Shown: piece after piece, positions 3,075 to 19,482 of the stretch
How positions within the stretch are numbered: position 1 is the stretch's first letter
How the letters are laid out: every line of letters begins with the position of its first letter
DNA from: a virus
Taxonomy: Duplodnaviria; Caudoviricetes
DNA length: 64,000 bases
Direction: 5' to 3' (one strand)
IMG/VR virus record: IMGVR_UViG_3300032247_000689
Span: 31,816-95,815 of that record
Translations under genes and position numbers: made by a program
The notes under the pieces: model-generated
Databases searched by the model: none
Seen by the model: only the letters and a program-made list of their open reading frames with translations
Told to the model about the DNA's origin: nothing

Positions 3075-3539
3075 GTGGCAACACTTATCTTTGTCGACCA
3101 TGTATTGCGCAGTCATACAGGTACGCCCGTCAAGCAGGGCATCGCGTTATATAGAACCCTAAAAGAAAAAGAACGCGTACTTCTTCTTTGCTCGCATAAA
3201 AGTAAAGATGAGCGTTGGTTGCGCGAAAACAAGATTAATTTAGTTGATGACCTAATCGGCCCTGATGTTCCTTTTCTTGAAGAGAGTATGGAGTTTCGCC
3301 AAGTCCAGCATTGCCGCGCTAACTGGCCTATTGATTTAGTTATCACAGGGGACACAGAGTTAGCCGCCCGTTTACTTGAGGCGGGGATGACCACGATGTT
3401 ATTCCTACACCCTACCTACATTAGCGAGAAGTTCAGACCTGATAGCCGTCAAGGAGTTAAACCGTGGGCTGAGATGACTGAGCAATTGATTAAGCAACAA
3501 GAGTCCTACGTTGAAGACCATCGAGTTCAAGAACTATGA
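3075..3539 (+). CDS. Degenerate HAD-like fold protein
   Basis: LIFVDHVLR resembles HAD motif I with the first Asp lost; SD GGAG. Confidence 0.45.
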   Translation: MATLIFVDHVLRSHTGTPVKQGIALYRTLKEKERVLLLCSHKSKDERWLRENKINLVDDLIGPDVPFLEESMEFRQVQHCRANWPIDLVITGDTELAARLLEAGMTTMLFLHPTYISEKFRPDSRQGVKPWAEMTEQLIKQQESYVEDHRVQEL

Positions 3540-4990
3540 GACTTATCTATTTGGGGGCAGATGTCCCTAGCAATCGCACCCTTCTTGAAACAACCACCGC
3601 TAACCATGTGGGGGTAAGTTACTGGCGCTTAGTTCAACGGGGGCTACCTAAGAAGAGCCATTACCTGCTGAAGAACTACTTTAAGGATGACTTCTACATC
3701 TATGTGCACCCTGGAATACCTAAAGACAATAGGCTTAGCCCAGAGGAGTTAGACGCTTTTCAAGCTGAGTACGAAGAGTTCATCGCCAACAATATCGAGC
3801 GCATAACCACCTTCAATGAGATTAACGCTGACTGGGTTCCACAGTCATTTGTAGAGCAACAGCGTTCTACCTGCTGGTCACAGGTTCCGCCTATTAAGTT
3901 TCAGCCTATCTGGGAGCCGTCCACAGGGTTTGCAGAACTGAACAAGATGGCTGAGTATTATCTGGACATTGCCGTTCCTGGAGACGCTTTAGAGGCTGAG
4001 ACTCAACTAGCCACGGTAGCCCGCACGTTGGCGCGTAAGGGCACTAGGTTTCATATCCTAGGCTCAGCCAAGCCCGACAACCTTAGGTCTGTCCCTGCTG
4101 AGACCGCCAGCACTATGTCATGGCTTAGCCCTATGATGAATGGTGAAACTATTGTCTGGGACGGTATGAAGTTGGTTCGCTATCCCAAGCGGATGAAAGA
4201 CCAAGCCCGTTCTCGATACCGCAACGTGTATCTGAAAGCTGGTATAAATGCAGATAGGATTCTGGAAGATGACGATAAGGAAGTCTGCCGTCTGGCGGTC
4301 TGGTCTTACCAACAGTATGAAGCGAGGTTAAACGGCGTGAGTAATGAAGACTTCTTATCTGATAAGAGCGAGTGGAGTGAAGTGGAGCGAAGTGGGGAAA
4401 GCACCCCCTCTGATATTGATAAGAAGGTAGGTGAGGTGCGGAAACTTGAGCCTCGAAATCCTGCTGAAATGGGTAATTTACCTGTCTTTGGATTCAATAC
4501 AACAACCGAGGTAGAAGACGATGGAACCATCAAAGATGTGACCACCGTAAGCTCGCAACATGTGTCTTTGCGTATGTGCGATACCTGCTTTGTAGCCGCT
4601 AACTGTCCTGCTTTTAAGCCCGCAAACACCTGCGCTTTTAAGTTACCTGTCGAGGTTAAGACCAAAGAACAACTACGCGCCCTACTCAATGCAATTATAG
4701 AAATGCAGGGACAACGCGTTGCTTTTATGCGTTTTAGCGAAGAATTGAACGGTGGATACGCTGACCCTAATGTTTCTCAAGAGATTGACCGCCTATTTAA
4801 ATTGGTTAAAACAACAAAAGAGTTAGATGACTCACGTGAGTTTATCCGCATGACTGTCGAGCGCCAAGGCTCGGCTGGGGTACTATCATCCATCTTCGGA
4901 GACAAGGCAAACGTCCTCAAAGAACTTCCAAATGAGGGGCTTGATGAGGAGCAAACAACGAAGATTATTAAGGATTTAACAGAAGAATAG
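3536..4990 (+). CDS. TGT/DpdA-like TIM-barrel protein with a C-terminal Cys4 cluster
   Basis: FHILG...ASTMSW...NG resembles the HxLG/DSTSW motifs of phage tRNA-guanine-transglycosylase-like proteins; CDTC-x5-CP-x7-C near the C-terminus. Confidence 0.45.
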   Translation: MRLIYLGADVPSNRTLLETTTANHVGVSYWRLVQRGLPKKSHYLLKNYFKDDFYIYVHPGIPKDNRLSPEELDAFQAEYEEFIANNIERITTFNEINADWVPQSFVEQQRSTCWSQVPPIKFQPIWEPSTGFAELNKMAEYYLDIAVPGDALEAETQLATVARTLARKGTRFHILGSAKPDNLRSVPAETASTMSWLSPMMNGETIVWDGMKLVRYPKRMKDQARSRYRNVYLKAGINADRILEDDDKEVCRLAVWSYQQYEARLNGVSNEDFLSDKSEWSEVERSGESTPSDIDKKVGEVRKLEPRNPAEMGNLPVFGFNTTTEVEDDGTIKDVTTVSSQHVSLRMCDTCFVAANCPAFKPANTCAFKLPVEVKTKEQLRALLNAIIEMQGQRVAFMRFSEELNGGYADPNVSQEIDRLFKLVKTTKELDDSREFIRMTVERQGSAGVLSSIFGDKANVLKELPNEGLDEEQTTKIIKDLTEE

Positions 4991-7168: not shown

Positions 7169-7286
7169 TTAGTATTAAACGCAGGTACGGCTATCTCTCT
7201 CTTCCTAAAACCAATAAAAGAAAGTGAAAGGTCTTGACCGCCCTTAGCATGGAAAGGGTGTGCTTTAACGCCCAATACTATAGGGA

Positions 7287-7442
7287 TTAAATCTCTTCTT
7301 CGTCGTCCTCTTCTTCATCATCACAGAGGCAATCATCTCCACACTCTCCGCAATCGAAGCATTGGTCATCTTCCCACTCTTCAAGGTCATCTTCATCTTC
7401 AAGTTCAATCTCTTCAATATCAGGGGTTACTTCATCAGCCAC
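7287..7442 (-). CDS. Extremely acidic 51-aa Cys-containing protein (start GTG 7442)
   Basis: 30 of 51 residues are D/E with no K/R; CxxCxxC..CxC. Confidence 0.6.
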   Translation of the reverse strand: MADEVTPDIEEIELEDEDDLEEWEDDQCFDCGECGDDCLCDDEEEDDEEEI

Positions 7443-7446
7443 TCTC

Positions 7447-7734
7447 TTATGCCTCTCTCTTGAAGGATACTGTACCTGACCAAGACATAGGCTTGCCTTT
7501 AACATCAAGGTCTGCGCCAGCAATCATCTTGCAACTCTTTCTAGTTGTCATGGCTTGGACTCTCTCTTTAACCCAACGCTTGCCAGCACTAGCGTTAGAC
7601 CACGCTGTTTTTTCTACAACATAGCCTTCGTCAATTCCTTCATCTCTTACGCTAACGCTTGCTAACCATGCGCCACCCTTTTCAGGGTTCTTTTTTAGTG
7701 TTGCCTCGAATATAGCAGTTACTTTTCTAGCCAT
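7447..7734 (-). CDS. Hypothetical protein
   Basis: SD AAGGAG; in the operon chain. Confidence 0.7.
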   Translation of the reverse strand: MARKVTAIFEATLKKNPEKGGAWLASVSVRDEGIDEGYVVEKTAWSNASAGKRWVKERVQAMTTRKSCKMIAGADLDVKGKPMSWSGTVSFKREA

Positions 7735-8146
7735 TGTTATTCTCCTTTGTGACCCAATAGTACGGCATATCAGGCAATACGTTTGGGAACTTGTCTGAGT
7801 AGTATTCAGGGTTCTTTCTTATTAAGTTGCTTTGGTGAGATAGGTGAAGCCGTCTCTCTCCTAACCATGACGGTAGGATTACTCTACCATCATAGTTAAA
7901 TCTCTCTAGCATATTATCCGTGTAGCCACGCGCGCTCCACTCTATGCACATCTCTCTCCCATACTCTTTAAGCGCGCTCTCATAGCCCGCCCACATGAGT
8001 ACGGCAGGGTGGTTACGCCAGCCCTTTGTCTCTCCACGCAGGGCTCTTAATACTTGCCACGCTTCGACTCTCTGTTTACCTAGTCTCTTATAGTCCAGCA
8101 CTTGCGCCGTCTCTCTGAAACTAGGATAGGGAAGGAAGGTCTGCAC
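7727..8146 (-). CDS. Pyrimidine-dimer DNA glycosylase / endonuclease V-like protein (MSMEG_6728 family)
   Basis: MQTFLPY...LDYKRLGKQRVEAWQ...HPAVLMW...HLSHQSNLIRK. Confidence 0.8.
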   Translation of the reverse strand: MQTFLPYPSFRETAQVLDYKRLGKQRVEAWQVLRALRGETKGWRNHPAVLMWAGYESALKEYGREMCIEWSARGYTDNMLERFNYDGRVILPSWLGERRLHLSHQSNLIRKNPEYYSDKFPNVLPDMPYYWVTKENNNG

Positions 8147-8147
8147 G

Positions 8148-8300
8148 TTACGCCTCTAGGTATTGCACTATGACCCCAAGCGTTGTGTGTATAGCGCAAT
8201 CACAATCGCTCTCTTTATGGTCGTTGAAAGAATTAAAGTGTTCTAAATTATCCTCATAGATTACGTCAATAAGTTCGTTTATTGTATATAAATCACTCAT
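8148..8300 (-). CDS. Hypothetical 50-aa protein (not in the ORF track)
   Basis: MSDLYTINELID...YLEA fills the gap between two genes. Confidence 0.5.
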   Translation of the reverse strand: MSDLYTINELIDVIYEDNLEHFNSFNDHKESDCDCAIHTTLGVIVQYLEA

Positions 8301-8301
8301 C

Positions 8302-8742
8302 TTATCTCTCTCTCATACTGTTGAAGGCAATATCAACTGCGATATTAAACTTTATATCCATTTCCTCTGTCCACTCGATAGAGTTCATCTCTCCCCAGTT
8401 GATAAGGTTATGCTCATCTATGAAGTTATGAATCTCCAGCGCGGTATCCTCATTAACGGATAACATCTTACCTATCCACATGGTAAAGATATTCGTTTGG
8501 TGCGGTTTGCGTGTAGGCACTTCATAATCGTTGCAGATAGCGTCCACTAGGGCTACCCCTGCTATGTCTCTCTTGCTCCCCACATAGGTAAGGCGCAATC
8601 CTGAATCGGATAGGGCTTGAAGTACAGTTATATATTCTATATCTACATTTATATCTTTGTTAAGTTTGATTAGTTCTTCTAGCCTTATACCTAGTACGCA
8701 AGCGTAATCCTTCTGCGCAGTAACCTTATCGTTGTCGTTCAT
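8302..8742 (-). CDS. Hypothetical protein
   Basis: SD AAGGAG upstream. Confidence 0.65.
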   Translation of the reverse strand: MNDNDKVTAQKDYACVLGIRLEELIKLNKDINVDIEYITVLQALSDSGLRLTYVGSKRDIAGVALVDAICNDYEVPTRKPHQTNIFTMWIGKMLSVNEDTALEIHNFIDEHNLINWGEMNSIEWTEEMDIKFNIAVDIAFNSMRER

Positions 8743-8784
8743 ACTTCTCCTTCGATATTGGTCGAGTTACACTCGGCGCACTCA

Positions 8785-8910
8785 TTACATCTCATCTTTC
8801 TTATGCTTCCGTTTCCTAGTGTATCGCTTCTTATTCTTTATGGGGGTAGCGGAATTACTACGGCGTAACTCTAATAAACGGCGTAGTTCCTCTGCTGACT
8901 TCTTAAACAT
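8785..8910 (-). CDS. Basic 41-aa protein with an ArfA-like C-terminal motif (not in the ORF track)
   Basis: MFKKSAEELRRLLELRRSNSATPIKNKKRYTRKRKHKKDEM; SD AAGGA. Confidence 0.6.
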   Translation of the reverse strand: MFKKSAEELRRLLELRRSNSATPIKNKKRYTRKRKHKKDEM

Positions 8911-8930
8911 CTTTCCTTATCCTTTGTTAG

Positions 8931-9009
8931 ATAACCCTAGCGCGTACTACGTCCTTAGTGTGTCGAACGGTACGTTGCAAGTCAATTCGCGTAATCGCGC
9001 TAGGGTTAT
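8931..9009. repeat. 14-bp perfect inverted repeat enclosing a promoter-like spacer
   Basis: ATAACCCTAGCGCG (8931-8944) / CGCGCTAGGGTTAT (8996-9009). Confidence 0.75.
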
Positions 9010-9012
9010 TCT

Positions 9013-9173
9013 GTAACTCAATAGGTACTGCGCTTTCGTGTCTATCATTTACTCGATACTATGCTGGCGAAACTATACTGCTGGTTACGGCTATCATAGT
9101 TTTCACCGTAATCCGTCGCGTTGTTATGGAGTAAGACCCTGTTTCATAGGCTAGACCAATCCTATTAAGTAAC
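9013..9173 (-). ncRNA. Putative structured RNA, unit A of a tandem pair
   Basis: Closing stem GUUACUUAAUAGG/CCUAUUGAGUUAC; shares UAGGAUUGGUC and CGCAGUACCUA with unit B. Confidence 0.5.
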
Positions 9174-9179
9174 TTTGCA

Positions 9180-9338
9180 CCCCGTTAGGTACTGCGACAC
9201 CATAGTTCACTCGAATCTATTACATAAACTCATTGGAACACTTTTGCTAATTGCCTATTGCCTTATTAAAGATAGCCCATGCCTATCTCATTGGGGCTCA
9301 CGTTCGCCATGTGGGGCTCTTGACCAATCCTAACGGGG
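9180..9338 (-). ncRNA. Putative structured RNA, unit B of a tandem pair
   Basis: Closing stem CCCCGUUAGG/CCUAACGGGG; same conserved 11-mers; length 159 vs 161 nt. Confidence 0.5.
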
Positions 9339-9358
9339 AATCCTCTATGTAGTTTTAT

Positions 9359-9973
9359 TTACCAACTCGCTTGGTAGTGGTAATCGTACTCTCCCTCAAT
9401 ATCACTCGCAAGTATTGAGTTAATCGTCTCTGCTGTCTCTGCAAGTTCACGATAGTAATACTCGTCCTTATCGGTACTACCGAAAAAGAATCCTGATACG
9501 GGTGGGATAGGGTCATCGCCTTCATCAAGGATAACCCTACTCGAACGCGCTGTCTCTTTGGCAAACGCTTCCATAATAGATTTGACCGTACTGTTCTCTG
9601 AACCCGAATCTATTGTATAAACTTCTGAATCTTGAGTAGGTACTGCCTTATGCCTATCCTGTAAGCCTACGACACACGCGTTACGCAACGCGATAAGGTC
9701 GTCTCTGCTCATTGAGATACGCTGGCACTCATCTACGCCGTTGGCGCAGTTGCGAACTATCCAACCGTGAATAGCGTTAGCCTTACGCCAATACGCTACG
9801 CACTTAGTAACTCTAACGCTACCGTATTCTGCGGTCGGTATCGAGTTTAGACCCGACGCTTCGATAACATTATCGTATTCAAGATTATCTTTGCGAGTCA
9901 TTTCGCCATTAACGCTCTCGAAGTCATACGCGCTTATGTGCTTCTCTGCATATAGGTACATATCTAATCCCAT
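9359..9973 (-). CDS. Conserved phage protein (MGLDMYL...YWRKANAIHGW...YQASW family)
   Basis: Recognisable widespread phage family of unknown function. Confidence 0.8.
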   Translation of the reverse strand: MGLDMYLYAEKHISAYDFESVNGEMTRKDNLEYDNVIEASGLNSIPTAEYGSVRVTKCVAYWRKANAIHGWIVRNCANGVDECQRISMSRDDLIALRNACVVGLQDRHKAVPTQDSEVYTIDSGSENSTVKSIMEAFAKETARSSRVILDEGDDPIPPVSGFFFGSTDKDEYYYRELAETAETINSILASDIEGEYDYHYQASW

Positions 9974-10104
9974 TTGTGTTTTCCTTTATTGTCTAATTGT
10001 TCGACGTCGCACCATACGAAGCCGTCCTGATGTCTAGTTATCTGTCCTAATATGTCGAACCATTGTTCGTCCACTTCGGCAGTAATTCTGAACGTGTCGG
10101 TCAT
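9964..10104 (-). CDS. Hypothetical 46-aa protein (not in the ORF track)
   Basis: MTDTFRITAEVDEQWFDILG...; ATGA coupling to the upstream ORF. Confidence 0.5.
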   Translation of the reverse strand: MTDTFRITAEVDEQWFDILGQITRHQDGFVWCDVEQLDNKGKHKWD

Positions 10105-10295
10105 AGGATTACCCTTCTGTTGTCCTCTAGGTAGAACATATAATCGAGCGCGGTCGTTATTAAATTGTTTAAGTTCGGTATATCTAACGCGGTATCCGCG
10201 CTATTTATTCCGTCCTGTAATCGAAGTAATACGTCCTTCATAAGTTTCGCGTAATCTACGGGAGACTCGTCGAAGGTAATCGTATCCTTGTCCAT
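10101..10295 (-). CDS. Hypothetical protein
   Basis: SD TAAGGAG. Confidence 0.6.
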   Translation of the reverse strand: MDKDTITFDESPVDYAKLMKDVLLRLQDGINSADTALDIPNLNNLITTALDYMFYLEDNRRVIL

Positions 10296-10407
10296 TAGAA
10301 CTCCTTACTGTTGTAGGTATATCCGCTAACCTTATTTGAGTTATGGATAATAGCAAGCGTTACGGCTACCGTGTATAGGGCTAGTACGCCTAGCCCTATC
10401 GCGGTAA

Positions 10408-12288
10408 TCATGCGACCCTGTTTGTGTTGAGCGTGGATTTGACTAGGCTCTGCGCCACTTCAAGAACGTCCTTTGGCTCGGCAACCGCGTGAAAGATACT
10501 CGCGCCATGATTTATACGCTTGATAGTGCTTCGCGCAGACTCGCCATAATCATCTCCGAGACGGCTCTGCTCTAATAATTCTTGGTAATACTTATATCCA
10601 CCTAAGAATACTACGCAAGTGATGAAGCCCTTATCGTTTAAGGATTTAATAATCGCGTTGCAATCATCGTCCATATCCCACTCGCCGTCGGTAACTATGA
10701 AGGCTAACTTTATCGAACGCTTGCTCATAGTGAGAATACGCTCTGCTTCAATTAAGCCACGAATAGGATTAGTGCTACCCGAAGCGTGGAGATAACGATA
10801 GGTACTAGGCTTAGCCTTGTCCTTCTTGTCATAGATAAGGCTACTCTCATGGTTGAAAGATATAGTAGTCACGTTGCCGTTGATACCTTCGATACCGCGC
10901 TTGATAATCCACGCGTTCTCCATGACCGAGCGCATGAGCCCACCCATACTGCTACTGTGGTCGGTTAAGATTACCGCTTCAATATCTGTATTAGGGTTAC
11001 CCGTATCCCATTGGTCGAACATGGTACGGATAGAGTTCACGTTAGGGCTCATGGTACGGGTGATATTTAACTTACCGCGCGCGTTAAACTTATCCCACTT
11101 AGGGTCGCCGTTGCGAACGATACGCTCTAATTCTTGACCGAAGCGACGGGCAATCGAGCGCGCTGACTCTGATACGCTCATCTCTGAACATGATACCTGC
11201 TTAACCGCACCGCGTACTTCGTCGCTATTAAGGATAGCCTTACGCGTTTCATTGACTTCGCGCTTGATAGTTTCGTTTTCCTTGATAGCCTTCATGCGGT
11301 TATTGAGTAACTTAGAGATAGCCTTATCTTTATCGTCGAACTCTACGTCCGCGCCTTCGTAAGTGCCGTCTCCACCCACGCCGACATTAGGATTATTACC
11401 GATAGTTTCGATAGGGTTATCCTTGTTCATGCGAGCGTTGCGTTCTTGTAAGCGTTCTTGCTCTGCGTTCTTTGCAGGACGACCCTTTACAGGGAACTCG
11501 CAACCGCCATGTGGGGGTAGGTGAATCTCACCCTGTTGCTCATCTAAGCCGACAATCTCTGCCATGCGAGCGATAAGCACCTTAGCCTTATCGAAGTCGG
11601 CAGGGAATACCAATACGCGATAGGCGTGGATAAGTGTGTGTAGTTCTTGCGCTAAGGCTACGCCATGAGTAGCGATAAACTCATCTGCAACCGCTTGGCG
11701 TACTTCGATAGGTAGATAGGTGCGACCCGTAATAATATGGAAGTAATTGCCAATCGTATCTTGATTATCGAGTAGGTACTGCGTGGTCGCGCTCTCTAGG
11801 AATAGTCGAGTCACGGGATATTTAGCCACTAGTAACGCTTCCGCGCGCGCTTCCTCTAGGATATAGGTTGCGCGACGGTACTTATTATCCTTGACATATT
11901 GGATAAGGTTACTTCCTGCGCGTGGCGAGAATAGAACGTGAGCGACTTCGTGGTAGTTGAGCCCGTGAAGGTGCATGATATTATCTTGAGATACATCTGC
12001 AATAAGGTTATCGTTAAATATAATCTCGCGACCGTTGCTCATAGCATTAGTTTCCATAGACGGGTCATTAACTACCGATACGGTTAGTTCAGAGTCGCCC
12101 GTGATAATTCTATCGGCGCGCTGATATACCGCGCTGATAGCGTTAAGGCGGTTAGCCCTATCCTGATAGTCGGCGAGAATATTCTCTCTAGTGCGACCGA
12201 ACTCGTCGGTCGCACCCCACCGTAAGTCTCCGCTTTCTAGGGCAGAGAGTTCATCGTTGTATCTAGCCCTAGCCACGAAGCACCTCAT
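10408..12288 (-). CDS. Zincin-motif + VWA domain protein (CobT-like partner of a MoxR ATPase)
   Basis: HEVAH (HExxH); MIDAS DHSSSM, T(NP), VTDG. Confidence 0.8.
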   Translation of the reverse strand: MRCFVARARYNDELSALESGDLRWGATDEFGRTRENILADYQDRANRLNAISAVYQRADRIITGDSELTVSVVNDPSMETNAMSNGREIIFNDNLIADVSQDNIMHLHGLNYHEVAHVLFSPRAGSNLIQYVKDNKYRRATYILEEARAEALLVAKYPVTRLFLESATTQYLLDNQDTIGNYFHIITGRTYLPIEVRQAVADEFIATHGVALAQELHTLIHAYRVLVFPADFDKAKVLIARMAEIVGLDEQQGEIHLPPHGGCEFPVKGRPAKNAEQERLQERNARMNKDNPIETIGNNPNVGVGGDGTYEGADVEFDDKDKAISKLLNNRMKAIKENETIKREVNETRKAILNSDEVRGAVKQVSCSEMSVSESARSIARRFGQELERIVRNGDPKWDKFNARGKLNITRTMSPNVNSIRTMFDQWDTGNPNTDIEAVILTDHSSSMGGLMRSVMENAWIIKRGIEGINGNVTTISFNHESSLIYDKKDKAKPSTYRYLHASGSTNPIRGLIEAERILTMSKRSIKLAFIVTDGEWDMDDDCNAIIKSLNDKGFITCVVFLGGYKYYQELLEQSRLGDDYGESARSTIKRINHGASIFHAVAEPKDVLEVAQSLVKSTLNTNRVA

Positions 12289-13153
12289 TGAAGTAGTTCA
12301 TATCTGCTTGGCGGTATCCCATAGACTCTAGGATATTGTCCTTATGTGTATCACACGCTAGGCGTACCCCACCGCGCTCCTCACGGTTGAAGCCATTAAC
12401 GAAGGACATAATTGCGAAGTCCACGTCGAAGTTGCGAGCGTTATTTATGAAGGCAACGAGCGAACGGGTTGAGATAGGGGTAGATAACTCCTCTTTAGCG
12501 TATTGCTCGCGAAGTTGGTCGGCTAGGATTAGAAGTGCTTTATTACCGACTACCTTGTTCTCGATAGCCCTATCGTAAGGGAACTCCAACTTAATATGGA
12601 AGCGGTCATTGAAGGCTTGGTTGAGTTCTTGTGTGCCTTTATAGCCATAGTTCATATCGGCTACGATTAGTAAGTCCTTATGCGCCTTGATTACTTCGCC
12701 ACCGTTCTCCAATAGTTGAATCTCACGGCGGTAATCGAGAAGTGAGAATAGGACGGTAGAGACACGGGTAGGGAGAAAGTTCACCTCATTGAGAAGTAAT
12801 ACGCCACCATGTCGGACGATTTGGGTAACTGCACCGTCCTGCCAACGATAACCCTGTCCGTCTGCGCGTGGAATCCATGCGCCGAATAGTTGAGAAGGGT
12901 CGATAGCATTAGAGTTCGATACATTGAAGTAACGCATACCCTTAGCCGAAGCATAACTCTGAACGGCGATAGTCTTACCGCTACCTGCTTCACCTTCGAT
13001 AAGGATATTAGTGCCGTCGGCAAGCGCGCGGTCAAAGATTTCCCACTCGGTTTTACGTCCGAAGTGGCGGTTGATATACCCGTGAGATAGAGATATATCG
13101 GGTACTGTAATCATGGAGTAGGTCATATCCTGCTCATTGGTCGTTGTATTCAT
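12269..13153 (-). CDS. MoxR/CbbQ/CobS-like AAA+ ATPase (start moved to ATG 13153)
   Basis: Walker A GEAGSGKT; WQDG; Walker B variant LLLNE; AFNDRF; STR sensor II; SD AGGAAGG. Confidence 0.85.
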   Translation of the reverse strand: MNTTTNEQDMTYSMITVPDISLSHGYINRHFGRKTEWEIFDRALADGTNILIEGEAGSGKTIAVQSYASAKGMRYFNVSNSNAIDPSQLFGAWIPRADGQGYRWQDGAVTQIVRHGGVLLLNEVNFLPTRVSTVLFSLLDYRREIQLLENGGEVIKAHKDLLIVADMNYGYKGTQELNQAFNDRFHIKLEFPYDRAIENKVVGNKALLILADQLREQYAKEELSTPISTRSLVAFINNARNFDVDFAIMSFVNGFNREERGGVRLACDTHKDNILESMGYRQADMNYFNEVLRG

Positions 13154-13205
13154 TGTGCCTTCCTGTGCGCCATTGGCGCGGTTATGGGTTTGCCTTACAT
13201 AGAGA

Positions 13206-13234
13206 AAGATAGGGGAAGGGATAGGTATAGGCAA
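13206..13234 (-). promoter_or_regulatory. SigA-type promoter of the MoxR-VWA operon
   Basis: TTGCCT-N17-TATCTT on the minus strand, downstream of an ATAAC pair at 13255/13266. Confidence 0.5.
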
Positions 13235-13496
13235 CTTCCTACTACGCGTGGAGTATAACGATTTGATAACGATTTCCTGCTCTCTCTGCCTCTCTTATCC
13301 GATAACTCTCCCCAACCGATAGCCCTAGACGTGGCTGTATCGCCATGCTCTCTCCACTACCATAGGTAGTAGCCGAAAGTCAATAGCGGAAAGGTGTGTT
13401 CTCTCTCACTCTCTAAGGTTAGCGGGCTCTCTCGCCTCTCTCGCGCAAAATTGTTATGAAATCGTTATAAATCTCTCGGCGTGTCGATTTGACAGA

Positions 13497-13612
13497 GTTT
13501 GTGTTGGTTAATAGCTAGCTATTAACCAATTAACAATAAGCCTAAGCTTATTGTTAACGGGGTTTAAGGGGTGTCCCCTGATAGGGTTATGGGTGGGTGG
13601 GTCAACACAAAC
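13497..13612. repeat. Branched palindromic element Y1 (divergent copy)
   Basis: GTTTGTGTTG...CAACACAAAC ends; 26-bp perfect palindrome 13504-13529; hairpin 13530-13557; G-tract 13584-13601. Confidence 0.75.
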
Positions 13613-13626
13613 ATTTCGCGCCCAAT

Positions 13627-13640
13627 GTTTCACGTGAAAC
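13627..13640. promoter_or_regulatory. parS-consensus site
   Basis: GTTTCACGTGAAAC, an exact 14-bp actinobacterial parS palindrome (15/16 to TGTTTCACGTGAAACA). Confidence 0.7.
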
Positions 13641-13730
13641 GGTGATAGCCCTAGCGCGCTAGGCACTAGGGCTATCGTTACCCTGTTTCCGAAAGGTTAG
13701 AAACTCAACAGGGCGCTAGGGGTAGACGAC

Positions 13731-14300
13731 CTACTCCCCCTTATCCCCGCGAATTACTCCGCGAAGGACATCTAATATGTTAGAGGGGAAATCGGTTGGT
13801 ACTGCCCCTGATTCAGTAAGGAGTTCAAGTGGGTCGTATTCACCTGAAAGTATCTTGTATGGGTCTAACTTAGAGAACTTATCCACCTTGCAGTTACTAC
13901 GAAGGAAGGCTGTCGCTAGGTCAGGTGCTTCCATCTCGAATTGGGAGATAAACCTACCCAATACGCCCATAGTAGAGAATAACTCCGCCGCATGACCGCA
14001 AGCCCATAGGATATTGCAAGCGATAGCGAGGGCGTACATATCGTCCTCGTTAGGCTTATCGTTCTGTATTACATTGGTAATCGCAGAGTTGGCTAGGGTT
14101 ACGCTCATTTTTTGACGGAACTCGAAGTCACCCTTGAGTGTTTGGCAAATAATTGCCGAATAGAGTTCAGGTTCGTGAAGGTCACGGGTAAGGTTAGGGA
14201 ACAACGGGTCAATGTTGTCCCCTTCCTCAATATCCTGCGCGTCAGGCAAGAGGTTAATAGTGGCGATAATCTCGTTAAAACGATACTTGAGGTCGCTCAT
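13731..14300 (-). CDS. Hypothetical protein
   Basis: 189-aa ORF, ATGA-coupled. Confidence 0.7.
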   Translation of the reverse strand: MSDLKYRFNEIIATINLLPDAQDIEEGDNIDPLFPNLTRDLHEPELYSAIICQTLKGDFEFRQKMSVTLANSAITNVIQNDKPNEDDMYALAIACNILWACGHAAELFSTMGVLGRFISQFEMEAPDLATAFLRSNCKVDKFSKLDPYKILSGEYDPLELLTESGAVPTDFPSNILDVLRGVIRGDKGE

Positions 14301-14788
14301 TGCTCGCTCACATCTGTATCGAAGTCAGAGTCATCTAACTCCCAAGAGTCGATGTCAATATCGTAACTACCTGACTCGCCCTTGTAGGAGATTGTCACGC
14401 TAATACTAGCCTCGATGTCAGCGTCCTCTAGGACTATTTCACCTGCGCGTTCCTCGTTCTCGGCTTCTACGTCCTCGAACTCGGCAACTGTGTACCCCTT
14501 GTAATTAACGGCAACTGTGAACTTGCGCATTAGGGTTTCAATGTTATCCCAACCTAAGCGGTCAGCGATAGTGTTATAGGTCTCGATGGCTTCATCGTTG
14601 GTAAGTGTGCCGTTGTCGGCTAGGTCGCGGAGTGCGCCAAGAACGCCCTCTGCGTGTGTGGCGTTAAGGTTGTCCTTAGCGCGCTGGATACGAAGGTCTA
14701 CATCTGCGTAGGCTTCGTTTACTGCCTTAGTTGTCTGTGCTACCACATCATCTGCGGTAAAGAACAACTGTGTCTGTTCGTATGACAT
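14297..14788 (-). CDS. Acidic hypothetical protein
   Basis: D/E-rich C-terminal half; first gene after a cassette promoter. Confidence 0.7.
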   Translation of the reverse strand: MSYEQTQLFFTADDVVAQTTKAVNEAYADVDLRIQRAKDNLNATHAEGVLGALRDLADNGTLTNDEAIETYNTIADRLGWDNIETLMRKFTVAVNYKGYTVAEFEDVEAENEERAGEIVLEDADIEASISVTISYKGESGSYDIDIDSWELDDSDFDTDVSEQ

Positions 14789-14832
14789 TTGTACTGCTTC
14801 CTGTGGGTGGTCGTTATCCCACTACCTGATTT

Positions 14833-14921
14833 AACCATACTCTCCCCCTCTCTATTCCAACTCTTTTATAACGATTTGATAACGAAAAGATAACATTTCG
14901 TTATTCTCAGCCAACTCTCAG
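14833..14921 (-). promoter_or_regulatory. Cassette promoter: GGAAT-N18-GTT + ATAAC array + TCTCAG-N5-TCTCAG
   Basis: Promoter 14833-14858; ATAAC at 14868/14879/14890, GTTAT at 14900; TCTCAG at 14905/14916. Confidence 0.7.
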
Positions 14922-14931
14922 GAATCTCCCA

Positions 14932-15018
14932 TGTTTGTGTTGGTTTATTAGCAAAATATGACGTGTCATATTTTGCAGACATAGCTGCTATGTCTGCGCT
15001 AATAAACCAACACAAACA
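14932..15018. repeat. Three-way-junction (T/Y-shaped) element Y2
   Basis: 21-bp outer stem enclosing abutting hairpins 14953-14974 and 14975-14997; all Watson-Crick pairs. Confidence 0.9.
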
Positions 15019-15019
15019 A

Positions 15020-15049
15020 TAAGCCTAGCGGGGGAAGCCGCTAGGCTTA
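15020..15049 (-). terminator. Terminator-like hairpin after the DUF3846 gene
   Basis: TAAGCCTAGCGG/CCGCTAGGCTTA; the U-rich tail is supplied by the Y2 arm. Confidence 0.65.
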
Positions 15050-15057
15050 CTGCTGAC

Positions 15058-15435
15058 TTATGAAAAGGATACGAACCCTGGCGCGTTGGTATTCCATATT
15101 TGGCTATCGTATTTGAGGAAGTAATCTACTTGCTCATCGGATAATCCTAGTGTGTAGCCCTCATCATCTGCGCCACCTGTGATAATGACATCGCCCATGA
15201 TTACATCTGACATATCGTACATATCAACCCATAGCGCGGTTGCGGTTGGGTTTTGAGTTAGCCCGCTAAACTTTCCGTTCTCGTTGAGCCACATATCAGG
15301 TTGGCTAGGCTTATCGTGTAGAGAGACACACTCAATCATGCCACCTACGGCTTCAGATAGAACTTCGTAACAGGTATCGTTGGTGAACTCAACCACAGAC
15401 TTCTCACCTGTGGTCGTAATCTTAATTGCTTTCAT
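15058..15435 (-). CDS. DUF3846-like protein (start moved to ATG 15435)
   Basis: LSEAVGGMIECV...WLNENGK...NPTAT...IMGDVIITG; SD GAAAGG. Confidence 0.75.
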   Translation of the reverse strand: MKAIKITTTGEKSVVEFTNDTCYEVLSEAVGGMIECVSLHDKPSQPDMWLNENGKFSGLTQNPTATALWVDMYDMSDVIMGDVIITGGADDEGYTLGLSDEQVDYFLKYDSQIWNTNAPGFVSFS

Positions 15436-15583
15436 CGGGTTTCCTTTCGGTCGGGGTGTGGGGTGGATAGCCCTAGACTTGGCTCTAGGGCTATCCTGCA
15501 ACCTGCTGACCCGTAGCGGTTGCGAGATAGGCAATTACGGCTTGTACTGGCTCGGATAGCCTATCCCAAACTTAATGCGGGTC

Positions 15584-15889
15584 TTACTTCTTTACTCCAA
15601 GAGTTTTGCGGAGATTCTTAATGCGCTCATAGAGAGTGCCTTCGGATACTCCTAGTGATTCAGCCATAAGGCTAATAGGTAGCCCTGCCTTGTGTGCTTG
15701 CCATGTAATGGCGTCGCGGTTGATGATGGCTTCCTTAAGAGCCACATCTGCTTCAACTAGGCTTTGGCAGAACTGTGCTTTCTGCTCTAGGCTTAGTTTT
15801 GACTTGCGGTACTTGCGCGTAGGTGCTTTACCTGTCGCGCGCGCTGTACGGATACGCTCCTTCAGCGCGTCTATGTCCTTGTGTGACAT
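15584..15889 (-). CDS. Helix-turn-helix DNA-binding protein
   Basis: GLPISLMAESLGVSEGTLYERIK. Confidence 0.7.
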   Translation of the reverse strand: MSHKDIDALKERIRTARATGKAPTRKYRKSKLSLEQKAQFCQSLVEADVALKEAIINRDAITWQAHKAGLPISLMAESLGVSEGTLYERIKNLRKTLGVKK

Positions 15890-15930
15890 ATATTCTCTTT
15901 CCGTGAGGGGTCGTTCTCACTATCTAATAG

Positions 15931-16002
15931 AACCACACCTCTGCGGATTCTCTTTCACTTTTTTGATAACGATTCGGTAACAATCTCATAACGAAATGTT
16001 AT
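15931..16002 (-). promoter_or_regulatory. Cassette promoter (variant GAAAG-N18-GTT) + ATAAC array
   Basis: ATAAC 15966, GTAAC 15977, ATAAC 15988, GTTAT 15998. Confidence 0.6.
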
Positions 16003-16005
16003 AAA

Positions 16006-16096
16006 TGTTTGTGTTGGGGTTTATATGCAAAAAATAACGTGTTATTTTTTGCAGACATGGCTTCCATGTCTGCGCATATAAACCCCAACACAAACA
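16006..16096. repeat. Three-way-junction element Y3
   Basis: 23-bp outer stem; hairpins 16029-16050 and 16051-16073. Confidence 0.9.
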
Positions 16097-16099
16097 AGA

Positions 16100-16125
16100 C
16101 AGCCCCAGCCTTTCGGCTGGGGCTG
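16100..16125 (-). terminator. Terminator hairpin after the DUF932 gene
   Basis: CAGCCCCAGCC-GAAA-GGCTGGGGCTG on the minus strand, followed by TCTTGTTT. Confidence 0.75.
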
Positions 16126-16140
16126 CTTTATAACGTTTCG

Positions 16141-17088
16141 TTATAGTGCCATTACGGCTTCTAGAACCCGCGCCTTTTCTTGCTGGATTCCAGTCTCGAA
16201 TCCACTAGCGGCAACTGCCATGCCCTCTGTCATAGGGTTATCGCCATTGCGGTACCAGTCGATTCTTTCGGTGAGCGCGTTAAGCGCGCCCCACTTAGTG
16301 CCAGTAATATTGGCGTTAGTTGGAGATGAGACATAGAGCCCACGAGTGAGGTCGAATTTTGCTTCCCACTTAGTAAGTTGAGCCTTCTTATCGTCCTCGG
16401 GCTTTGGATAGATAGTCTCGAATACCTTGTCGAATTGCGCGGTTGTGATTGGTGTCTGGTAAAGACCCTGTGCGATTGCATCGAATTCATCTAAGTAAGC
16501 ATGTGTGAGCGCAAGAGCCTCGCGCGCTTCTGTGATTCTGCCCTGTGTGCCTTGAGTGTGGCGAACAGACCATGATTGCTTAGCGCGCTTGAAGGCTAGG
16601 CTTAGCGTATTTTGGCAGATAACGCGAACAGGCGTTACACATGCGCGGATTGAACTAGAGCCGTCATGTGATGATGAAACTAAGAGATATGTCTTAGTTG
16701 TGTCATTTGCGCCAGTTGGGTCGATTGTAAACTCGCGGTCGATTGTGAGCGCACCGAAGATTGTGCGACCCTTGCGGAAGAAACCTGCGGATTCCCATTG
16801 GGCTCCGCCGTCAAGAAGATTGTCGCCGAAAGCGAGTAAATCCTCATTTTGGTATACATCGTATTTTTCGCCTACGATTGCGAGAGATTCCACGCCGTTA
16901 GGGGTATCGCGTAGCACCATATATTCATTAGAGAGAGGCTTGACGCCAGTTGGGTAATTTACAGGCTCCTTGCGGACATTCCAGTTGGCAAGACCTGCGC
17001 GGTTGAGCATTTCGCTCGTTGTGACATGCTCATTAGGGCGGAAAATCTCCCGCGCTAATGTGTGCCACGTTGGTGTGCGTAGTGACAT
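16141..17088 (-). CDS. DUF932-family phage/plasmid protein (start moved to ATG 17088)
   Basis: WH.L, AGLANWNV, VGEKYDVYQNE, YLLVSSSHDGS, TPVRVICQNTL, VRHT, GTKWGALNALTE. Confidence 0.85.
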   Translation of the reverse strand: MSLRTPTWHTLAREIFRPNEHVTTSEMLNRAGLANWNVRKEPVNYPTGVKPLSNEYMVLRDTPNGVESLAIVGEKYDVYQNEDLLAFGDNLLDGGAQWESAGFFRKGRTIFGALTIDREFTIDPTGANDTTKTYLLVSSSHDGSSSIRACVTPVRVICQNTLSLAFKRAKQSWSVRHTQGTQGRITEAREALALTHAYLDEFDAIAQGLYQTPITTAQFDKVFETIYPKPEDDKKAQLTKWEAKFDLTRGLYVSSPTNANITGTKWGALNALTERIDWYRNGDNPMTEGMAVAASGFETGIQQEKARVLEAVMAL

Positions 17089-17134
17089 TTTTAACCTTTC
17101 GATATTGCTAGCCCTATGGCTAGGCACCCAATAT

Positions 17135-17245
17135 AACCTAATACGCGGTAGTGCTATTCCACTCTCACATAACGATTAGATAACGATTCCATAACATTTC
17201 GTTATACAGGTATCTCTCAGGAAACTCTCAGGATTCTCCTCTCAG
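17135..17245 (-). promoter_or_regulatory. Cassette promoter: GGAAT-N18-GTT + ATAAC array + TCTCAG repeats
   Basis: Promoter 17135-17160; ATAAC at 17169/17180/17191, GTTAT at 17201; TCTCAG at 17215/17226/17240. Confidence 0.7.
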
Positions 17246-17252
17246 CTGAAAA

Positions 17253-17343
17253 TGTTTGTGTTGGGCTGTATATGAAAAATATGCATGGCATATTTTTGCA
17301 AAGACCGCTTCGCGACTTTGCCATATACAGCCCAACACAAACA
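17253..17343. repeat. Three-way-junction element Y4
   Basis: 22-bp outer stem; hairpins 17275-17297 and 17298-17321. Confidence 0.88.
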
Positions 17344-17345
17344 AG

Positions 17346-17377
17346 TTATCCACAGGCGGGGAAGTGCCTGTGGATAA
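17346..17377. promoter_or_regulatory. Inverted pair of consensus DnaA boxes
   Basis: TTATCCACA (17346-17354) and TGTGGATAA (17369-17377) within a 12-bp inverted repeat. Confidence 0.65.
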
Positions 17378-17585
17378 GTTAGCCGCCGCGAAAAAGGTTA
17401 GGGAAAACGCGGCGGCTAAGGCTAGGTTGTGCTATTCCAGCACTCGTCACAAGTAAAGCCATCTGGATATGCGTCTGGAAGTATTGGCGTTAGTACAGAC
17501 CCATCAGGGAGCTTCTTTGCGCACTTCATACAGATTAGTGAGCCTTCCGCGTCCTCAACGCCGATAAGCCTAGTGAACGGAGTAA

Positions 17586-17774
17586 TCACGCTGGCACCCA
17601 TGTAGTCCAGCGCGTTTCAAGGTTATCCTGCAAGAGGCGTAACCTTACGCTACCTGTGCGATTGCGTACCTTCTCGACTACAAAGCCTACTTCTTTAGAT
17701 TGCTCGGTTTCGTATAGGTCGCCAATCTCGGGCTCGAAATTGAGTGGCAAGATGTGGTCGGTGAGTATTGCCAT
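17586..17774 (-). CDS. Hypothetical small beta-rich protein
   Basis: SD GAAAGG; in the operon chain. Confidence 0.6.
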   Translation of the reverse strand: MAILTDHILPLNFEPEIGDLYETEQSKEVGFVVEKVRNRTGSVRLRLLQDNLETRWTTWVPA

Positions 17775-17927
17775 TTATTTATTCCTTTCGTAATGGAAGT
17801 CACAGATTGTGGCGTCCGCGTCTATTGAGTAGTGACAATTAGTTTTTACTGTGTGGTGAGTGTAATGAAAGTGGGCGAGCCCTGCAAGGGTGGCTATTGC
17901 CACCCCTGCAAGAATTACGCGCTTCAT
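17775..17927 (-). CDS. Small membrane/secreted protein, 50 aa (not in the ORF track)
   Basis: MKRVILAGVAIATLAGLAHFHY...; ATGA coupling. Confidence 0.5.
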   Translation of the reverse strand: MKRVILAGVAIATLAGLAHFHYTHHTVKTNCHYSIDADATICDFHYERNK

Positions 17928-18082
17928 GGTTTCAATCCAAATTGCTCAACGACAGTCTTAGTACATTCCTCAATTCCCGAAATCTTGCCTTCTGTGTAGG
18001 CAATCTCGATAATGTGCGCCACTAGATTAGTGGTAGTGGTATCTAGGCTCGCTTCTGCGAGTAGGGCTAGGGCTTGCTTCAT
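17924..18082 (-). CDS. Hypothetical 52-aa protein, first gene of the island (not in the ORF track)
   Basis: SD GAAAGG; MKQALALLAEASL... Confidence 0.55.
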   Translation of the reverse strand: MKQALALLAEASLDTTTTNLVAHIIEIAYTEGKISGIEECTKTVVEQFGLKP

Positions 18083-18128
18083 GTTCGTAACCTTTCGTTA
18101 TGAAGGCGTTGTTGCCTTCAACTACTAT

Positions 18129-18247
18129 AACCGAGAGCGCGCTAGTGCTATTCCCACTATATATAACGAAATGATAACGATTAGATAACAATATGTTATA
18201 CAGCCTGCTCTCAGGTACCCCCCAGGGTTAACTCAGACAATTCTCAG
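18129..18247 (-). promoter_or_regulatory. Cassette promoter: GGAAT-N18-GTT + ATAAC array + four 11-bp-spaced TCTCAG-like boxes
   Basis: Promoter 18129-18154; ATAAC at 18163/18174/18185, GTTAT at 18195; boxes at 18209/18220/18231/18242. Confidence 0.7.
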
Positions 18248-18308
18248 GAACGGGGCCAGGAAACATCCGCACCTATTACATAGTTCTATAGGCAGTAGCC
18301 CTTTTTGC

Positions 18309-18343
18309 TTGACATGGTGAGGCAGTAGCGCTATGGTGCGGTA
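18309..18343 (+). promoter_or_regulatory. Consensus SigA promoter, leaderless
   Basis: TTGACA-N17-TATGGT-N6-ATG. Confidence 0.75.
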
Positions 18344-19245: not shown

Positions 19246-19482
19246 GTGCGCTTTATTACATGGCTATTCGAACAGATAGGGGATGCCACCCCCACATCCC
19301 GCTTTGCCAAAATCTGCTGGGACGATATCAACAATGGGTGTGCTCATACAAGATTTTCTTTTAAACAGTGGCAAAATCATTTTTTAGAGAAGCATAGAGA
19401 TAGCGCTGACGAGCTCCTGAAGATGTTATTCACAGCGTATATTCAGTATCAGAACGAGATGGGTAACCGAGTTGTCTTCTAA
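19246..19482 (+). CDS. Hypothetical protein (YozE-like start, leaderless)
   Basis: CATACT-N6-GTG; MRFITWL. Confidence 0.55.
   Translation: MRFITWLFEQIGDATPTSRFAKICWDDINNGCAHTRFSFKQWQNHFLEKHRDSADELLKMLFTAYIQYQNEMGNRVVF

Follow-up and report, generated by a model that had tools for sequence, protein, structure and literature searches.

In this study, we examined a 64,000-nt stretch of viral DNA, hereafter the window (bases 31816-95815 of a 95,815-bp IMG/VR virus record, whose whole genome is labelled G000), and within it the intergenic regions of a leftward gene arm that occupies window positions 7170-18250, hereafter the island. Read along the minus strand, these regions carry a regulatory cassette whose parts keep one order and one spacing in four copies (A, B, C, and E). 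A chance origin of the cassettes is excluded. We suggest, with a probability of roughly 0.55, that they would act as self-contained expression units gated by host regulators in the hypervariable leftward arm of a lytic freshwater actinophage. All assignments of factors to sites in what follows are motif-based.

A recurrent intergenic cassette

The minus-strand reading was checked by pattern counts and by alignment of the four cassettes. Behind a stop codon stands a GC hairpin, followed by the T-rich TTGTTTGTGTTGG and a long palindrome ending in CCAACACAAACA; the middle holds two to five CCTG-type boxes (CCTGAGAG and variants) in 11-bp phase and then ATAAC-N5-GTTAT-N6-GTTAT-N6-GTTAT; the downstream end comprises a gap of 8-9 nt, GGAATA-N17-GTT, a hairpin in the 5' untranslated region (5'UTR), a GAAAGG-type Shine-Dalgarno site, and ATG. 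The 5' hairpin keeps a constant position throughout the alignment, with a different sequence in each cassette. The 12-mer of the palindrome arms has 10 matches against 0.65 expected; when the whole 95.8-kb genome is counted, the arms, the triple GTTAT arrays, and GGAATA-N16-GGTT are all confined to the island, and three of the four strongest inverted repeats in the 64-kb window are the palindromes (ranks 1, 2, and 4).

The design extends to related phages. An arm-pattern search of IMG/VR recovered 29 stretches of related phage contigs, and the sister genomes, compared whole (G001, G003, and G005; 96-98 kb) or in part (G002 and G004), are syntenic with this phage, their core proteins being mostly ~50-90% identical. 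The island is the hypervariable part of these genomes, with only DUF932, an ATPase pair, and a few other genes common to all; the terminator hairpin, arm-bounded palindrome, boxes, promoter, and 5' hairpin are kept in every sister genome. Conservation of module order and spacing among relatives, the test that an earlier, sequence-only reading of this DNA had set, is thus what we observe. Some relatives' cassettes retain the right arm alone. In 596 Gb of bacterial genomes the arm pattern returned only seven matches, all unrelated sequences without hairpins, and a bacterial repeat family was rejected on this ground; 50,697 phage records searched at the nucleotide level gave no match to the island. 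The promoter and boxes vary by lineage. In G001, eight GGAATA-N17-GTT sites lie within ~10 kb on the coding strand, each a few tens of nt upstream of a start codon and 7-8 nt past an 11-bp box array, and among all relatives fetched this core is used only by G001 and the present phage. Most other relatives carry a housekeeping-type TTGCAT-N17-TAnnnT, preceded at a fixed 16 nt by CCTGTGGATAAC with a perfect DnaA box. The boxes are of GTTAT, TGAACATTA, GGTTAACA, or CTGAGAG type, depending on the lineage.

The complete cassettes are C (17417-17135) and A (15048-14833), on the minus strand like all features given below unless stated otherwise. Cassette C opens, after a stop codon at 17422, with the terminator-like GC hairpin T1 (17381-17417), and an inverted pair of perfect DnaA boxes (17346-17377; inverted repeat I11) then forms a hairpin that runs directly into the T-rich left arm. 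Its palindrome (17253-17344; inverted repeat I1; fold -54.1 kcal/mol) has an outer stem of ~23 bp, with the invariant arms, around two inner palindromes, giving a T or Y shape. There follow the CTGAGAG boxes (17207-17245; CTG at 17245, 17231, 17220, and 17209, the last three in 11-bp phase), the ATAAC/GTTAT array (17169-17205; ATAAC at 17205-17201, GTTAT at 17195, 17184, and 17173), and, 8 nt past the last box, the GGAATA-N17-GTT promoter (17135-17160; GGAATA 17160-17155, GTT 17137-17135), with the ATG of DUF932 downstream at 17088. Cassette A has its T1 hairpin at 15021-15048 (terminator scan; I9), its palindrome at 14932-15019 (I4; -49.9 kcal/mol), a partial box with CCTGAGAG and GCTGAGAA in 11-bp phase at 14904-14931, the ATAAC/GTTAT array at 14868-14904, and, after a 9-nt gap, the GGAATA-N17-GTT promoter at 14833-14858, with ATG at 14788.

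Cassette E (18248-18129), the first unit of the arm, is without the palindrome. Its five CCTG-type boxes (CCTGAGAA, TCTGAGTT, CCTGGGGG, CCTGAGAG, and GCTG; 18201-18248) have CTG triplets starting at 18247, 18236, 18225, 18214, and 18203, an exact 11-bp phase, and TTAACCCTGGGGGG, embedded in them, recurs at the same divergent region of relatives. The ATAAC-N5-GTTAT-N6-GTTAT-N6-GTTAT array (18163-18199) is followed, 8 nt past the last box, by GGAATA-N17-GTT (18129-18154) and by a 5'UTR (18080-18119) with a hairpin at 18119-18102, the Shine-Dalgarno site GAAAGG at 18096-18091, and ATG at 18082. Cassette B (16126-15931) is without CTGAGAG boxes. Its T1 hairpin of 12 pairs, found by the terminator scan, runs into the T-rich left arm (16099-16126); the palindrome (16006-16097; I2; -55.8 kcal/mol) has no G-U pair on either strand; the array reads ATAAC/GTTAT/GTTAC/GTTAT (15966-16002); and the promoter, 9 nt further on (15931-15956), aligns column for column with those of A, C, and E, its -35 being degenerate (GAAAGA) with the N17-GTT spacing unchanged. 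Just ahead of the cassette B terminator, an inverted ATAAC-N5-GTTAT pair (16130-16144), shaped like the box pair that opens every array, overlaps the DUF932 stop codon. The terminator scan picks out three hairpins as predicted intrinsic terminators, T1 in A and in B and the DnaA-box hairpin in C, and in all three the left arm comes next.

A further intergenic region, D (13713-13154), carries a distinct asymmetric arm pair with a (CCCA)n tract, a parS before it, and two ATAAC pairs after it. Two terminator-like hairpins (13644-13713; I15 and I16) follow the stop codon at 13731; a parS-type 14-bp palindrome (13627-13640) lies between terminator and left arm; and the asymmetric, or type II, arm pair (13497-13613) consists of left arm, (CCCA)n tract, small hairpins, and right arm. 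A tandem pair of ATAAC type (ATAACGAT-ttc-ATAACAAT) stands at 13450-13468 and a second pair, GTTAT-N6-GTTAT, at 13255-13270, upstream of the AAA-ATPase gene (ATG 13153); no sigmaH-type core was found at this second pair. The type II arm pair is also present in the relatives L006, L008, L010, L020, and L027, and the D variant occurs in relatives ahead of the same AAA-ATPase gene. In these asymmetric arm pairs, at 13591-13602 here and in the same five relatives, tracts of (CCCA)3 type lie on the coding strand, and the opposite strand therefore carries G-quadruplex-capable GGGT repeats.

The sequence-only reading had proposed a repeated ordered design in these gaps, with full copies at 14833-15049 and 17135-17419, a copy without TCTCAG boxes at 15931-16125, and a copy without the Y-shaped element at 18129-18247; we recover them as cassettes A and C, B, and E, and the parS and DnaA-box pair that it placed beside two of the copies are both exact. 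The rearranged copy that it saw at 13200-13680 is instead variant D. Its argument that differing spacers spoke against recent duplication holds in that the inter-motif spacers do differ from copy to copy, but cassettes C and E share about two thirds of the spacer between -35 and -10, and these two are therefore related by duplication.

Sites of host-regulator type

According to the published sigmaH consensus of Corynebacterium glutamicum, the -35 reads gGGAAta and the -10 t/cGTT, and confirmed sigmaH-only promoters have the form GGAATA-N17-GTT; the sigmaE class needs C at -31 (GGAAC), whereas promoters of the sigmaH-only class have T there, with the two elements spaced as GGAAT-N18-19-GTT. GGAATA-N17-GTT is matched exactly by cassettes A, C, and E, which on this basis are sigmaH-only in type, by a corynebacterial consensus that may not be the host's. 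T occupies -31 in all copies here and in G001, contrary to the sigmaE-class rule. The core lies 25-60 nt upstream of a start codon in 4/4 cases here and in 8/8 in G001. A fourth perfect GGAATA-N17-GTT, at 10186-10211 on the minus strand, lies inside a small open reading frame (ORF) downstream of the 626-aa gene, where it could act as an internal promoter of the 204-aa gene or have arisen by chance. Neither Sigma70_r2 nor Sigma70_r4_2 domains were found in this phage genome, and no sigma, DnaA C-terminal, or OmpR-type (Trans_reg_C) domain was recognised in five phage genomes at E<=1. Our literature search returned nothing relevant on phage use of sigmaH promoters or on DnaA boxes in actinophage early promoters.

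The boxes were compared with sites listed in a review of corynebacterial two-component systems, which gives the MtrA site as (A/G)TAACAAT-ttn-(A/G)TAACAAT, activating if upstream of -35, and the best PhoR site as CCTGTGAA-aat-CCTGTGAA; we required at least 14/16 positions for MtrA and 13/16 for PhoR-type sites. The whole genome holds nine MtrA-type sites (14-15/16 positions) against 0.37 in shuffles, the consensus being that of C. glutamicum and possibly not the host's, and seven of the nine fall in the island arrays. Scored against this consensus out of 16 positions, the array of cassette C contains two overlapping tandem matches of 7+7 each, that of B matches of 7+8 and 8+6, and the tandem pair of D one of 7+8, while that of E, read on the plus strand from window 18174, gives 7/8 and 8/8 against (A/G)TAACAAT-N3-(A/G)TAACAAT. 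Among relatives, 17 distinct MtrA-type sites occur in 11/27 contigs, against 0-2 (mean ~1) per shuffle, including a perfect 16/16 site in L011. The CCTGAGAG units agree with the C. glutamicum PhoR unit at 6/8 positions in the correct 11-bp phase, below the 13/16 cut-off, and the arrays of G001 contain exact CCTGTGAA units (8/8). Also in G001, three 11-nt units of GTTCACC, the core of the Streptomyces coelicolor PHO box, immediately precede the sigmaH-type -35 of the AAA-ATPase gene (L033:8085-8120, corresponding to G001:C1:40090-40122), and two more two-unit GTTCACC arrays lie inverted beside right arms. Whatever the box type, the promoter-proximal array ends 7-9 nt from the -35 in this phage and in G001, which, judged from the spacing, is the geometry of OmpR/PhoB-family activators.

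Two further kinds of site are of host type. The two perfect inverted DnaA boxes of cassette C read TTATCCACA, a sequence counted 6 times in the island of G003 and 9 times in that of G005 (in one orientation per genome) and 10 times in locus L030; the island of G001 has no DnaA box. The parS sequence GTTTCACGTGAAAC matches at 14/14 positions and is found once here and once in G005, in both cases between terminator and left arm; of the four complete genomes checked, two have no parS.

At the level of motifs, the proposal that the cassette is assembled from host-regulator-type sites is borne out by the sigmaH, MtrA, DnaA, PHO, and parS matches. Its more specific form needs revision. A promoter of SigR/SigH/SigE type had been claimed, of which the sigmaH/sigmaR consensus stands and sigmaE does not, since -31 is T and not C; nor is the coupled idea of MprA boxes feeding a SigE circuit supported, as the C. 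glutamicum MprA motif TKTTAAGAAM does not match the CTGAGAG boxes, which fit the corynebacterial PhoR repeat at least as well as the MprA reading.

From these elements we suggest the following mechanism. The GC hairpin would end the upstream transcript, its T-tract being the left arm of the long DNA palindrome, which would separate the units as an insulator or topology site, or serve replication or recombination. Two stacks of 11-bp-phased direct repeats would bind OmpR/PhoB-family response regulators head to tail, the CTGAGAG stack resembling PhoR or MprA sites and the ATAACnAT stack matching MtrA sites. With the box stack ending 8-9 bp upstream of the -35, in an activator position, a core promoter of the actinobacterial sigmaH/sigmaR class would fire, and the mRNA would begin with the 5' hairpin and Shine-Dalgarno site. 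The genes of the arm would then be gated by a host stress sigma together with envelope, cell-cycle, and phosphate regulators, not by phage factors, and in sister phages the chassis would be kept but take other inputs: parS, a PHO box, or a housekeeping promoter with its DnaA box.

The palindrome and the leftward arm

For the palindrome family we assembled 35 distinct elements from this phage and its relatives. In relatives the upstream flank folds at -11 to -30 kcal/mol, mostly -18 to -30, and the other side at ~0 to -17; in two of the 35 the flanks are nearly equal, and weak flank hairpins (down to about -5) occur in a few asymmetric or borderline elements. A strong flank hairpin runs straight into the left arm, which doubles as the terminator T-tract. 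In 22 elements the stem is at least 8 perfect pairs longer than the arms fixed by the search, with 26 different 10-nt extensions in use, and just 0.4% of shuffled interiors reach even 4 extra pairs; on this evidence self-complementarity is maintained while the interior sequence drifts. The remaining 13 show 0-2 extra pairs, nine of them being asymmetric with a C-rich tract, and the arms are kept in all 13. Wobble pairs number 49 on the coding strand and 63 on the other, of ~1135 pairs, without strand preference, and the three palindromes here have 0-1 in 40-42 pairs. An Rfam 15 scan of 9.5-19.6 kb (E<=1) returned hairpin-like microRNA models only, at 23-29 bits against thresholds of 74-114. 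The absence of a wobble strand bias and the position between a terminator and the next promoter point to an element acting at the level of DNA rather than RNA, and our preferred guess is an insulator or topology element, able to form a cruciform, that separates transcription units. Two known element types were rejected: an integron attC site, as the GTT-type left and AAC-type right arms reverse the attC order (RYYYAAC left, GTTRRRY right), and a Frpo-type single-strand promoter, as no TTGnnn-N17-TAnnnT is readable in any stem of the three copies. No integrase was seen near the island among the ORFs scanned. A gene content of DUF932 with DUF3846 is typical of plasmid leading regions.

The virus encodes a tail sheath, a portal, and a large terminase, and is therefore a tailed phage. 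The terminase shares 55% identity with the terminases of Streptomyces phage BRock and relatives, the phage has two WhiB genes, and WhiB is also present in the four sister genomes tested (5/5 genomes in all); given this kinship and the WhiB genes, the phage is, by its gene content, an actinophage. The record's ends overlap by 123 bp, a sign that the assembly path was circular and not that the phage has a short repeat. The cassettes head the minus-strand arm of ~11 kb (~18250 to 7170), in which four small ORFs are followed leftward by DUF932, a 101-aa helix-turn-helix (HTH) protein, DUF3846, two genes of unknown function, and then the ATPase pair, an AAA_5 (CobS-like) ATPase with its 626-aa partner. 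The HTH protein is the only one in the island and, being absent from all related loci, including those that keep the boxes, was rejected as the box binder. For DUF932, the predicted structure has a mean pLDDT (predicted local distance difference test) of 70.6, and neither Foldseek (E<=0.001) nor a sequence search of PDB gave a PDB match.

DUF932 has homologues in 464 phage records, and almost all of these belong to actinophages. The Streptomyces BE-cluster phages carry it as gene 2 or 3, in two copies per record; in phage Bmoc, a second copy of genes 1-21 stands at the right end, offset by 121,822 bp, giving an 11,063-bp direct terminal repeat with ~20 leftward genes, and the published size of the BE-cluster terminal repeat is ~11 kb, with T5 and SPO1 as size analogues. 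Elsewhere among actinophages the homologue is found 0.4-4 kb from a genome end. Restriction sites are distributed unevenly: GATC and CCGG are absent from the 95.8-kb genome (~299 and 143 expected), GGCC is missing from the island only (0 observed against 29.5 expected, with 130 elsewhere in the genome), and AGCT is depleted sevenfold in the island (6 against 38.7), which is enriched in CGCG, TCGA, and CTAG. This extra avoidance is consistent with DNA that lies exposed until protection is established. From the DUF932 homology to the 11-kb repeat of the BE-cluster and the island-only avoidance, the leftward arm is most likely, by analogy, a collapsed ~11-kb terminal repeat that would be first into the cell; the claim that this is the first-entering DNA, made from the sequence alone, gains indirect support from the same two lines.

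Farther along the leftward arm, at 7727-8146 (-), a pyrimidine-dimer glycosylase of T4 endonuclease V type is encoded, and an ORF-poor gap of ~330 bp lies at 9013-9338. A rightward arm diverges from the leftward one, beginning back to back with cassette E at a housekeeping-type promoter (TTGACA-N17-TATGGT; 18309-18337, plus strand). Its early ORFs gave no informative Pfam or PHROG match. Beside the divergent promoter region, a 78-aa protein (19246-19482, plus strand) is kept in all related loci at 32-51% identity and is a candidate conserved early factor, and an 80-aa protein is common only to the two phages with the extracytoplasmic function (ECF)-type core; a language-model look-up of both gave only a weak YozE-like lead (YozE/SAM-like for the 78-aa protein). 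Elsewhere in the genome, a queuine tRNA-ribosyltransferase-like protein (3536-4990, plus strand) may relate to 7-deazaguanine DNA modification, and upstream of the window lie genes for Hsp20 and a RuvC-like protein.

Competing explanations and known systems

Gating by host regulators has several points against it. The consensus sequences come from Corynebacterium and Streptomyces and may not be those of the host, and the CTGAGAG boxes reach just 6/8 PhoR positions per unit here. Response-regulator activation of ECF-sigma promoters is uncommon, and an anti-sigma factor normally holds sigmaH, an odd dependence for the earliest genes. Because a housekeeping-type promoter drives the opposite rightward genes, the leftward arm may be conditional or delayed and not earliest, and its status as a terminal repeat is by analogy. 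Box variation between sisters could equally mean co-evolving phage binders unseen by Pfam. The main rival, which we consider rather unlikely, has the boxes and GGAATA...GTT read by phage factors (an unrecognised sigma or appropriator and small DNA-binding proteins), with the likeness to host sites a partial mimicry or coincidence and the arm a middle-class regulon that gene products of the rightward housekeeping-type operon would turn on. The lineage-specific box types are the pattern expected of such regulators, the sigmaA-like promoter does point into small unknown genes that include the universally kept 78-aa protein, and the 80-aa protein follows the ECF-type core; yet the five genomes lack recognisable sigma, OmpR-type, or DnaA-type domains, the sole HTH protein is missing where boxes are kept, and four or five host consensus matches of this number and exactness (DnaA 9/9, parS 14/14, PHO, MtrA 16/16 in one relative, and sigmaH) are hard to obtain by chance. 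Host proteins might also be involved without promoter control, the DnaA boxes, parS, and MtrA boxes loading chromosome proteins on the incoming DNA for positioning, initiator titration, or protection. MtrA and DnaA also bind oriC according to the literature, parS adjoins an arm in two lineages, the islands of several relatives hold many copies of TTATCCACA, and BE-cluster terminal repeats encode Lsr2-like and ParB-like proteins. We nevertheless judge this improbable: the distances to the -35, 16 nt for DnaA boxes and 7-9 nt for arrays, are fixed, which argues for promoter-coupled action, and parS is single and not universal.

The palindromes, for their part, could be the functional core, with the promoter parts mere neighbours: DNA recognition or structure sites for replication, terminal-repeat processing, or recombination, such as cruciform or hairpin origins by DnaA boxes, or crossover points that shuffle gene cassettes as in T4. 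This is possible, if doubtful. The arms do not vary between phages that share only ~50-85% identity in their core proteins, and the interiors change by mirrored substitutions without wobble strand bias; DUF932 is bracketed by two palindrome elements in most relatives, clusters of 3-6 DnaA boxes adjoin the arm in L008 and L010, the island is hypervariable, and the phages encode a RuvC-like protein. Homology between related-strain contigs also breaks at cassette edges, with one ORF skipped exactly at the terminator, although these are weak hints from low-depth metagenome contigs. Against such a role, the arm-to-arm length is free (73-107 bp, w/o helical phasing), the right arm can stand alone, G001 has arms yet no DnaA box, and no recombinase or Rep-type gene was identified nearby. 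A role as RNA in read-through transcripts, as RNase III sites like those between T7 early genes or as anti-termination or stabilising structures, is highly improbable. The palindromes do sit between tandem genes, their interiors covary, and their perfect stems of 21-27 bp have a length that suits RNase III; but placed after a terminator whose T-tract is their own left arm, and before the next promoter, they would be mostly untranscribed, and neither the near-absence of G-U pairs here, the lack of coding-strand preference in the family, nor the Rfam result favours RNA.

We therefore retain host-gated expression units as our reading. The bolder proposition, that a lytic actinophage lineage runs its first-entering arm wholly on host sensors, namely a stress ECF sigma (sigmaH/R) together with interchangeable response-regulator operators (MtrA, PhoR/PhoP type) and initiator or partition sites (DnaA box, parS), on one chassis divided up by an undescribed class of cruciform-capable nested palindromes with invariant arms that would act as structural insulators or processing sites, we put forward only tentatively. 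If host sigmaH and response regulators do control the arm, the phage would read the redox, envelope, cell-cycle, and phosphate state of its host at entry, a concrete example of how infection may be decided in freshwater Actinobacteria, an abundant group. With inputs exchanged on a common chassis from one sister phage to the next, promoter rewiring can be followed as in a natural experiment; the palindromes with conserved arms are a widespread and well-defined DNA element, and the cassettes may serve as compact regulated expression units for actinobacteria.

Parts of the design have known counterparts, namely early-region promoter/terminator cassettes (T4 PeSL, SPO1), cyanophage pho boxes, and T5 DnaA boxes. 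Like the T4 promoter/stem-loop (PeSL) elements, the present cassettes are repeated regulatory modules that bracket small accessory genes in a hypervariable early region and are plausible crossover points; PeSL, however, combines a sigma70 early promoter with a simple stem-loop, in contrast to the nested palindrome of 90-odd bp, the boxes, and the ECF-class core found here. In cyanophages, pho boxes at pstS or phoA likewise set a direct-repeat operator of a host two-component system on a phage promoter, but for one auxiliary gene and one regulator, whereas here a whole arm, several regulator types, and a stress sigma would be involved. T5 and SPO1 share a long terminal repeat with first-expressed genes and palindromes and, in T5, DnaA boxes, although in T5 the repeats form one non-coding block and here there is one per gene. 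The core has the form of SigmaH/SigmaR promoters of Actinobacteria (GGAATA-N17-GTT, T at -31), which to our knowledge have not been known as phage promoters, recognition by the host sigma being predicted; we likewise know of no earlier description of MtrA-/PhoR-type operators stacked on a sigmaH-class phage core, or of arm-conserved nested palindromes.

To call this an undescribed system, as the sequence-only reading did, was an overstatement, as it is a regulatory cassette design with a sister design in the Streptomyces phage Bmoc (BE-cluster, Stanwilliamsviridae). Both phages have ~11 kb of leftward, mostly single-gene units with a DUF932 homologue (47% identity), and in both the gaps contain a terminator hairpin, a second conserved palindrome, a promoter, and a 5'UTR hairpin. 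In Bmoc (L063, 1-10000), the 13-bp palindrome GGCCGCCCCGGCC lies in nearly every gap between the terminator and a TAGACT-type promoter; we did not find it in the Bmoc genome announcement. Unlike here, this second palindrome is 13 bp long and GC-rich, no 11-bp box arrays were seen, and the promoters are of housekeeping type (TTGnnn-N17-TAGACT). The BE-cluster phages are siphoviruses of 131-134 kb, whereas the present phage has a tail sheath and a genome of 96 kb.

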